IMG/VR virus record: IMGVR_UViG_3300025316_001101
DNA: 64,000 nucleotides
Direction: 5' to 3' (one strand)
Origin: a virus
Lineage: Duplodnaviria; Caudoviricetes
Shown: positions 19,912 to 20,212 of the stretch, piece after piece
How positions within the stretch are numbered: position 1 is the first letter of the stretch
Layout: every line of letters starts with the position of its first letter
Position numbers and translations under genes: made by a program
Notes under the pieces: generated by a model
What the model saw: the letters and a program-made list of their open reading frames with translations, nothing else
What the model was told of the DNA's origin: nothing
The model's database searches: none

Positions 19912-20212
19912 TTTCGGCCCGACAAGGATGAATGCATGATGTTTTCTCAGGCTCTACCGGCATCGACCAGTGTGTTGTTACACCAAAGGGCGACTATCCG
20001 ATGTGGTCGGCTTCCCAGCATCATCCTCATTCTAGAAATGAGGGAGAGGCTGCACACCCACTCTTTGAATGATGGCTACTTCTAGGCCAACATCCTGGTT
20101 GTCTTAGCCTTTTGCAAAGCCCTTACTTCCCACTAAAACACCAAACAACTGCAAACGCAGATGAGACGAACTTCACTTCTGTTATGTAGTCCCACTCGCA
20201 TTCGAGCCGAAA
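19912..20212 (-). ncRNA. structured ncRNA E2 carrying the 23S rRNA H42-H44 (L11/L10-binding) domain with a 76-nt insertion
   Basis: 11-bp terminal stem; AGACAACCAGGAUGUUGGCCUAGAAGUAGCCAUCAUUCAAAGAGU (20060-20104) plus GUGUAACAACACACUGGUCGA (19963-19983). Confidence 0.88.

Follow-up and report, generated by a model that had tools for sequence, protein, structure and literature searches.

A phage-encoded RNA whose core copies the GTPase-associated centre of 23S rRNA belongs to a large family linked to tRNA genes

In Escherichia coli 23S rRNA, nucleotides 1051–1108 form a 58-nt domain that binds uL11 and thiostrepton, and the 1067 loop of this GTPase-associated centre (GAC) is a contact for EF-G and thiostrepton. 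The closest described systems outside the ribosome are ribosomal-protein mRNA leaders such as the rplJL L10 leader (RF00557), in which an extra-ribosomal RNA imitates stalk-base rRNA to bind a ribosomal protein; the ‘ribosome-in-pieces’ oligonucleotides, in which the isolated GAC or sarcin–ricin loop (SRL) is a self-contained factor ligand; and phage RNAs that act as decoys of, or substitutes for, host RNAs, among them tRNA arrays, which serve in counter-defence, and the pseudo-ToxI of phage PhiTE, an RNA mimic that neutralizes a toxin (PMC3475682). Here we analyse a 64,000-nt stretch of DNA (the window) from the Caudoviricetes virus record IMGVR_UViG_3300025316_001101 and show that E2, which is encoded on its minus strand and is probably a stable non-coding RNA (ncRNA), belongs to a large family of phage RNAs and has a conserved core that copies the structure of the 23S GAC, comprising helices H43 and H44 and the junction. 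The source record in IMG/VR measures 259,024 bp, is classed as a provirus and has a CheckV completeness of ~50% (about half of the genome).

When E2 is set beside the bacterial GAC, the H43/H44 pairs, U1060–A1088, the 1082:1086 pair, the (1092–1099)–1072 base triple, the 1067 loop and the 1095 loop recur in it, as does, in E2's clade, an H42 arm with GA/GA; E2 differs in that it is free-standing, has its own closing helix, is phage-encoded within a tRNA array, carries a 76-nt arm between 1090 and 1091 together with a UUUG linker, and has A rather than U at position 1101. Like the ribosomal-protein leaders, E2 may bind a ribosomal protein outside the ribosome, but the leaders are cis-acting 5′ untranslated regions of ribosomal-protein operons and are loosely rRNA-like, whereas E2 is nearly identical to rRNA. 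No Rfam leader family (L10_leader etc.) matched E2 at E ≤ 10, no ribosomal-protein gene lies near E2 or elsewhere in the 259-kb record, and a search of that record, about half of the genome, for uL11, uL10, bL12, NADAR and RtcB genes found none. E2 shares with these phage RNAs that it is structured, imitates a cellular RNA and lies among tRNA genes, and its proposed logic would likewise be neutralization of an RNA-directed toxin, but what it imitates is an rRNA domain. The ‘ribosome-in-pieces’ oligonucleotides are laboratory constructs, whereas the E2 family, whose GAC (with the SRL in some members) may likewise act as a self-contained factor ligand, consists of natural, evolving genes. Neither Rfam 15 nor the literature searched yielded an RNA class that is a natural stand-alone copy of factor-docking rRNA with its three-dimensional contacts under selection: the family is absent from Rfam 15, which recognizes E2 solely as a sub-threshold large-subunit (LSU) rRNA fragment and nothing in two long-insert relatives (L002, L005), and a full-text literature search found no description of this RNA family.

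The identity of the core is established as follows. On the minus strand, positions 20104–20060 read AGACAACCAGGAUGUUGGCCUAGAAGUAGCCAUCAUUCAAAGAGU and give 39/43 identities by blastn with true enterobacterial 23S rRNA (E. coli 1046–1088), or 39/45 for E. coli 1046–1090 once 1089–1090 are counted, where E2 has GU instead of AA. With U1060 anchored at 20090, an insert occupies 20059–19984 and G1091 falls at 19983; from there, 19983–19963 read GUGUAACAACACACUGGUCGA, identical to 1091–1111 at 17/21 positions in a manual position-by-position count against the true 23S in L006, and contain CACUGGUCGA (E. coli 1102–1111), an exact 10/10 match to 23S by blastn. Infernal, using the Rfam model LSU_rRNA_bacteria, joined both halves across the insert and aligned 19963–20106 to model positions 1085–1152 (the end of H42, H43 and H44) with a score of 30.6–36.1 bits and an E value of 2.4e-7 for the whole window against 4227 families, a match far beyond chance. 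Every pair of H43, H44 and the closing helix 1051–1055/1104–1108 is possible in E2, U1082/A1086 and U1060/A1088 are present, and U1072 (20078), U1092 (19982) and A1099 (19975) co-occur, which is the U/U–A state of the triple. An earlier note, made from the letters of the window, had claimed the 39/45 match, a 76-nt insert with two hairpins after which the H44 register resumes at 19983, and the joint occurrence of the equivalents of C1072U, C1092U and G1099A; all of this is borne out, the insert by sequence, fold and Infernal, and both blastn and Infernal place the GAC match where it had been put. The note had also held that E2 is not an rRNA gene, and since E2 is the sole rRNA or LSU match in the 259-kb record, we agree; against RF02541 there was no full-length match above the 50-bit gathering score, model positions 1085–1152 alone being matched. 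The same record contains no further GAC copy besides E2, and its best SRL-like 14-mer has two mismatches, with ~1.7 such sequences expected by chance (calculated from genome and motif length).

E2 is not an isolated case. A scan of IMG/VR with a degenerate pattern for the H43 half returned 56 viral loci, of which two were real 23S; a second pattern, for the H44 half, contributed many others, and after deduplication at least 103 distinct elements were left, to which all counts out of 103 refer. Among the matches listed for bacterial assemblies at least three, which are counted in the 103, were true elements, the remainder being mostly chance. Each pattern fixed one half of the element, and conservation of a half was consequently read only from elements found via the other half. 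In the common layout, a covarying closing helix, whose sequence is free and whose length ranges between a few bp and 30 bp, is followed by the core 1056–1090 ending in AAAGAGU, by an insert of ~24–369 nt with its own covarying basal helix, by a UUUG linker (in nearly all members) and by G(C/U)GUARNA(G/A)C-ACAC, which includes A1101 and leads into the other strand of the closing helix. E2 has every one of these features: its own closing helix, the core, the insert with basal helix, UUUG, the G-U-A-N-N-A loop and A1101. BLAST detected unannotated copies in GenBank in Yersinia phages fHe-Yen9-03/04, Ralstonia phage RSP15, Pseudomonas phages pf16, Astolliot, UNO-G1W1 and Milchi, Aeromonas phage 4_4572, Xanthomonas phages XacN1, XbC2 and XaC1, the Erwinia pEa_SNUABM phages and Kaldavass, Serratia phage BF, Cronobacter phage GAP32 and Pectobacterium phage CBB. 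The carriers thus include cultured jumbo phages (GAP32, CBB, XacN1, pf16, RSP15 and others), and the presence of copies in these and in other cultured phages such as fHe-Yen9-04 makes the question of function directly testable. Paenibacillus phage Pd_22F (L169, MZ092003) carries genuine 23S DNA and was excluded from the family; close to the end of its record an unannotated 1.7-kb gap at ~81.5–84.0 kb is Paenibacillus-type 23S, which may be host DNA that entered the record or a true capture by the phage.

Across the family, selection maintains the tertiary contacts of the rRNA domain. In alignment A2, which comprises E2 and 30 short-insert relatives (31 members) and for which the GAC structure was specified and 23 pairs were scored, 94.5% of cells were paired as against 71.1% in shuffles, 16/23 pairs had changes on both sides, and the covariation score was 0.621 versus 0.161 when shuffled (0/500 as high) and ≤0.157 with partners slid. 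Among the 103 elements, position 1072 equals 1092 in every one (C/C–G in 74, U/U–A in 21, U/U·G in 6 and C/C·A in 2), so that the independent variation of the triple positions named in the earlier note as contrary evidence is not seen; the tertiary pair 1082:1086 is canonical in 100/103 (U–A in 74, C–G in 18, A–U in 8), 1058:1080 takes all four Watson–Crick pairs, 1057:1081 switches from A–U to C–G, and U1060/A1088 is invariant. Both states of the triple are found on every background of 1082:1086, 1058:1080 and 1061, which implies that the switch occurred repeatedly or was exchanged between lineages. In the 64 elements found via the 3′ half only, U1060, G1063, A1077, A1084, A1085, G1087, A1088 and U1090 are invariant, and in those found via the 5′ half only the H44 loop G-U-A-N-N-A is kept in ~38/40 and A1101 in nearly all. 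The proposals that E2 contains the uL11 domain with its triple changed in the known covarying way, and that tertiary structure is under selection, are thereby supported, the latter also by the covariation of 1082:1086 and the helices. The basal helix of the insert is 97.8% paired in A2 with double changes in 3/3 pairs, so that the insert is a real helix making H44 a three-way junction.

These data bear on the view that E2 is a functionless remnant, either a decaying captured fragment of host 23S rDNA or an intron-split pair of mini-exons. Its high identity to rRNA and the IS200/IS605-type element adjoining it would suit such an origin, and the insert follows a U and ends in a G, as group I introns do. 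However, the family-wide compensatory changes and the shared phage-specific features (A1101, the insert site and UUUG) indicate one origin and purifying selection, and a genuine captured 23S looks different, as in Pd_22F; the covariation largely refutes the dead-fragment view, and taken as a whole we consider it scarcely credible. Splicing of the insert, as raised in the earlier note, is similarly unlikely, given that the arm is family-wide with a covarying basal helix and UUUG linker, that no Rfam intron matched the window or the long-insert elements L002 and L005, and that inserts of 24–45 nt cannot self-splice. A group I intron (RF00028, with a P3–P8 catalytic core and a length of ~200 nt or more) was rejected for E2, whose insert has only 76 nt and gave no match, the U|…G| boundary being the sole likeness. 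The GGUGU repeats, which had been taken to bound the insert, have no significance: they are not seen in the aligned short-insert relatives, and they are a by-product of the U1092 variant and not a target-site duplication.

The family is associated with tRNA genes. These lie within 3 kb of 73/103 elements, and all 455 tRNAs near family elements are on the strand of the element, with none opposite; a tRNA within 300 nt lies upstream of 40 elements and downstream of 39, with spacers to the closing helix often of 9–21 nt. Protein neighbours do not recur beyond close relatives, no neighbour being common to more than 6/103 loci. Such a habit points to a stable RNA that is excised from transcripts of tRNA genes and works in trans on components of the host. 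The strict co-orientation and tight spacing could also be expected of a cis-acting element of the array transcript, serving in processing, stability or antitermination, with its rRNA likeness an incidental matter of ancestry; but 30/103 elements lie more than 3 kb from any tRNA, some possess a terminator of their own (L080), and a processing signal does not explain selection on rRNA-specific tertiary contacts, and we judge a cis role very improbable.

Considering the fold, its selection and its setting together, we suggest that the family RNAs are probably free-standing imitations, or decoys, of the ribosomal site, and we put the probability of a trans-acting mimic at roughly 55%, split roughly evenly between a decoy for toxins or effectors and a sponge for proteins or factors. 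E2 would be part of the tRNA-array transcript and be freed from it by tRNA processing, trimming of the tRNA-Ala 3′ end creating its 5′ end; it would fold like the ribosomal stalk base and work in trans as a free-standing imitation of it, loading host uL11 and, in E2's clade, perhaps uL10/bL12. It would thus present a second docking surface titrating a protein that normally recognizes the GAC on the ribosome, E2-like RNAs being expected to bind what the ribosomal GAC binds. Trans action is favoured because the 259-kb record holds no ribosomal-protein gene, because there is no conserved protein neighbour and because some inserts contain the SRL. Phage tRNAs and pseudo-antitoxin RNAs provide the analogy for the preferred target, which would be an rRNA-directed toxin or defence effector, and other targets might be the ribosomal proteins themselves, a translational GTPase or a stringent factor. 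Tre23 ADP-ribosylates H44 at nucleotides 1095–1098, MazF-mt6 and VapC20/26 cut 23S rRNA (PMC8661411), and defence nucleases that cleave rRNA and tRNA are an emerging theme (10.64898/2026.07.14.738597).

Since known enzymes act at the imitated rRNA sites, a toxin decoy is plausible, and phage tRNA arrays and pseudo-ToxI offer precedents for countermeasures made of RNA; if E2 is such a decoy, rRNA-directed attack on the GAC would be a common pressure on phages, and the family would help to find the attackers. Several points weigh against the mimic model, or against parts of it. The 1067 loop is looser than the fold core (A1067 in 44/64 and G1068 in 39/64 of the elements found via the 3′ half only), which agrees more closely with selection for the fold and for uL11 binding than with selection for an entire factor or toxin surface. 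In addition, the search patterns partly inflate the conservation figures, one half having been fixed in each scan. In three metatranscriptome runs and one DNA run, RNA contigs cover 20059–20104 only and continue into genuine 23S of other organisms, and are therefore uninformative on E2 expression. A substrate decoy would need a very high copy number against a catalytic toxin, and sequestration of uL11/uL10 could harm the phage's own translation.

Because the best-conserved positions lie in the fold core and not in the 1067 loop, uL11 is the most parsimonious partner, and this conservation pattern, which favours a uL11-binding fold, also speaks for the alternative that the RNA manipulates ribosomal proteins or factors instead of evading defence, soaking up new uL11 (and uL10/bL12), or RelA or EF-G, and so blunting the stringent response or re-tuning translation. 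Ribosomes deficient in uL11 are relaxed (relC), Munishkin and Wool reportedly found in 1997 that EF-G binds isolated GAC and SRL oligonucleotides in vitro, and E2's clade appears to keep the Kt-42 region, the uL10-binding place in rRNA. Yet a phage relies on host ribosomes, the uL10 site (the H42/Kt-42 region) is not present in most family members, and this alternative overlaps the mimic model, differing in target only; as a separate explanation we think it unlikely. Capture of uL11, uL10 or GTPases, if real, would be a new viral way to steer translation or the stringent response.

The inserts require comment on their own account. The SRL sequence (U)AGUACGAGAGGA occurs inside the long inserts of eight elements (L172, L191, L201, L215, L230, L211, L234 and L246), at insert positions ~216–229 in the first five, and these members consequently combine both rRNA halves of the factor-binding site. 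In L246 the SRL sequence occurs twice, together with UAUAACAGUCCUAAG, which is H69-like. Another motif, (GG)CACCCCGUAACUGGUAAGG(C), is found in the otherwise unrelated inserts of 12 members (e.g. L151, L194, L227 and L366); E2's own insert has neither the SRL sequence nor CACCCCGUAACUGGUAAGG. The insert is the only strongly variable part of the element and carries recurrent modules (the SRL 13-mer in 8 members and CACCCCGUAACUGGUAAGG in 12), and conservation is higher in the fold core than in the 1067 loop, as might be expected if the GAC were a compact, protein-stabilized chassis, with uL11 as chaperone or RNase protection, and the insert carried the real lineage-specific function. Members with inserts of 24–45 nt exist, so that the core alone seems sufficient, and the G-U-A-N-N-A loop of H44, which a mere chassis does not need, is kept as described above; a scaffold role therefore appears distinctly unlikely to us. 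Whatever their role, the family members are hundreds of natural variants of a classic model of RNA tertiary folding.

Within the family, E2 belongs to a small clade with L080/L093, L111, L082 and L052, found on very large contigs of up to 533 kb, that keeps an rRNA-like H42 around the core, AGACA(A/G)CCAGG … CUGG(U/C)(C/U)GA. We conclude from sequence comparison that the H42 arm of this clade is Kt-42-like, that is, a predicted kink-turn, in E2 of the form GGC-UAA-GA…GA-U-GCC: the GA/GA of E2 lies at 20103–20102 and 19964–19963, and in five clade members GA/GA is kept, the C-stems covary and the bulge is present. The earlier suggestion that such a motif is retained is to this extent upheld, and uL10 is a second candidate partner in the clade. 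Folding E2 under constraint to the GAC pairs gives a coherent architecture in which H42 is extended into a long arm (Table 1); the unconstrained fold has −103.3 kcal/mol and z −2.6.

The frame in which this core lies resembles a second RNA gene in the window, E1, which contains eight short pieces of 23S 1903–1987 (H69–H71, including GGUCCUAAGGUAGC) in scrambled order. Compared by hand, E1 and E2 have end modules that are alike at about 26/31 and 15/17 positions, the E2 modules concerned being the 11-bp clamp (20212–20202 with 19922–19912), the 5′ hairpin module and the 3′ motif UCCUUGUCGGGCCGA; on this comparison, E2 has the look of a core from the GAC family placed within a frame of the E1 type. 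The context around GGUCCUAAGGUAGC in E1 is common to at least four other viral contigs (L404, L430, L476 and L483), and E1 and its relatives may constitute a second family of rRNA look-alikes. Within the 3′ clamp module of E2, UCCUUGUCGGG matches the 23S H70/H71 region at 11/11 positions, and as its blastn-short E value is 0.15 on its own, imitation of H70/H71 by the clamp is a lead only. It is a tentative and rather doubtful proposition that large phages carry a modular kit of imitations of rRNA centres, namely the GAC, the SRL (in some inserts) and H69–H71 (E1), expressed from tRNA arrays and serving as decoys against immunity or toxins that target rRNA, or in the capture of translation factors; were this true, the kit would parallel phage tRNA arrays at the RNA level and add a new class to viral counter-defence.

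Table 1. Features of E2, its flanking tRNA gene and E1 (window coordinates)
Feature	Position	Strand	Description
E2, whole ncRNA	19912–20212	−	301 nt; clamp helix, 5′ hairpin domain, H42-like arm, GAC core with insert, 3′ clamp strand
Terminal clamp helix, 5′ strand (UUUCGGCUCGA)	20202–20212	−	Pairs with 19912–19922; 11 bp in free and constrained folds; homologous to the E1 5′ end
5′ hairpin domain (CGAAUGCGAGUGGGACUACAU...)	20155–20201	−	Similar to the 5′ module in E1 and in E1-like phage RNAs (compared with E1, L404, L430 and L476; fold)
H42-like arm, 5′ strand	20100–20147	−	Holds the Kt-42-like GGC-UAA-GACA (20109–20100); pairs with 19933–19965 in the constrained fold
GAC 5′ half (E. coli 1051–1090)	20060–20099	−	H42 end, H43, 1067 loop (A1067 = 20083, U1072 = 20078), junction AAAGAGU; Infernal, blastn, covariation
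Insert between U1090 and G1091	19984–20059	−	76 nt; basal helix GGGUG/CGCCC, two hairpins, CCUCAUU(U)/(G)AAUGAGG and CCGA/UCGG, UUUG linker 19987–19984; fold
GAC 3′ half (E. coli 1091–1108)	19966–19983	−	H44 loop GUAACA (A1095 = 19979), U1092 = 19982, A1099 = 19975, A1101, 3′ strand of the H42 end; Infernal, family table
H42-like arm, 3′ strand	19933–19965	−	CGA-U-GCC of the kink-turn-like motif (19965–19959); constrained fold, clade comparison
3′ clamp module (CAUUCAUCCUUGUCGGGCCGAAA)	19912–19932	−	Last 11 nt pair with the E2 5′ end; related to the E1 3′ end; fold
tRNA-Ala(UGC)	20213–20284	−	Directly 5′ of E2; CCA not encoded; ARAGORN; Rfam tRNA match 63.9 bits
E1, separate RNA gene	9763–9997	−	~235 nt; promoter-like site ~10019–9995; closing helix and U-run terminator; fold z −4.9

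The genome that carries E2 is that of a huge freshwater phage, DNA near-identical to the window being found in lake and freshwater metagenome runs of several studies. As contigs of several such runs from different studies carry the E2 locus, and a 714-nt metagenome contig equals 19882–20400 without any difference, the locus is not an assembly artefact. The limits of E2 were set by the end of tRNA-Ala on the 5′ side and by the start of a repeated insertion sequence (IS) end on the 3′ side, and a scan of the minus strand between tRNA-Ala and E2 found no promoter-like or terminator-like site. The repeat, of ~143 nt at ~19765–19911 (minus strand), begins exactly at the 3′ end of E2; it has six copies in the 259-kb record, 75–95% identical, with a metagenome depth 5–12 times that of its flanks. 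After it comes a TnpB/IS605 OrfB gene at 18322–19461 (minus strand; PF07282, PF12323 and PF01385), and the repeat probably represents the left end of an element of the IS200/IS605 type, copies of which have accumulated in this phage. A second copy lies at 48740–48882, with an open reading frame (ORF) at 47213–48445 (minus strand).

Upstream of tRNA-Ala, a small ORF of 179 aa at 20275–20814 (minus strand) has weak helix–turn–helix and zinc-ribbon matches, and GAC elements at four further loci (L156, L225, L235 and L270) have homologues of this ORF nearby. It probably represents a gene of tRNA arrays that is mobile or of homing type, and not a partner. Rfam finds 33 and ARAGORN 30 tRNA genes in the window, all on the minus strand like E2, and the GC skew is uniformly negative throughout. 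Two of these tRNAs, at 16289–16362 and 43227–43301, have the anticodon CUA (amber suppressor type), two others, at 38689–38763 and 38839–38913, are given a 2-base ‘anticodon’ by ARAGORN (odd loop size), and those at 16932–17026 and 43660–43778 have long insertions (95 and 119 nt).

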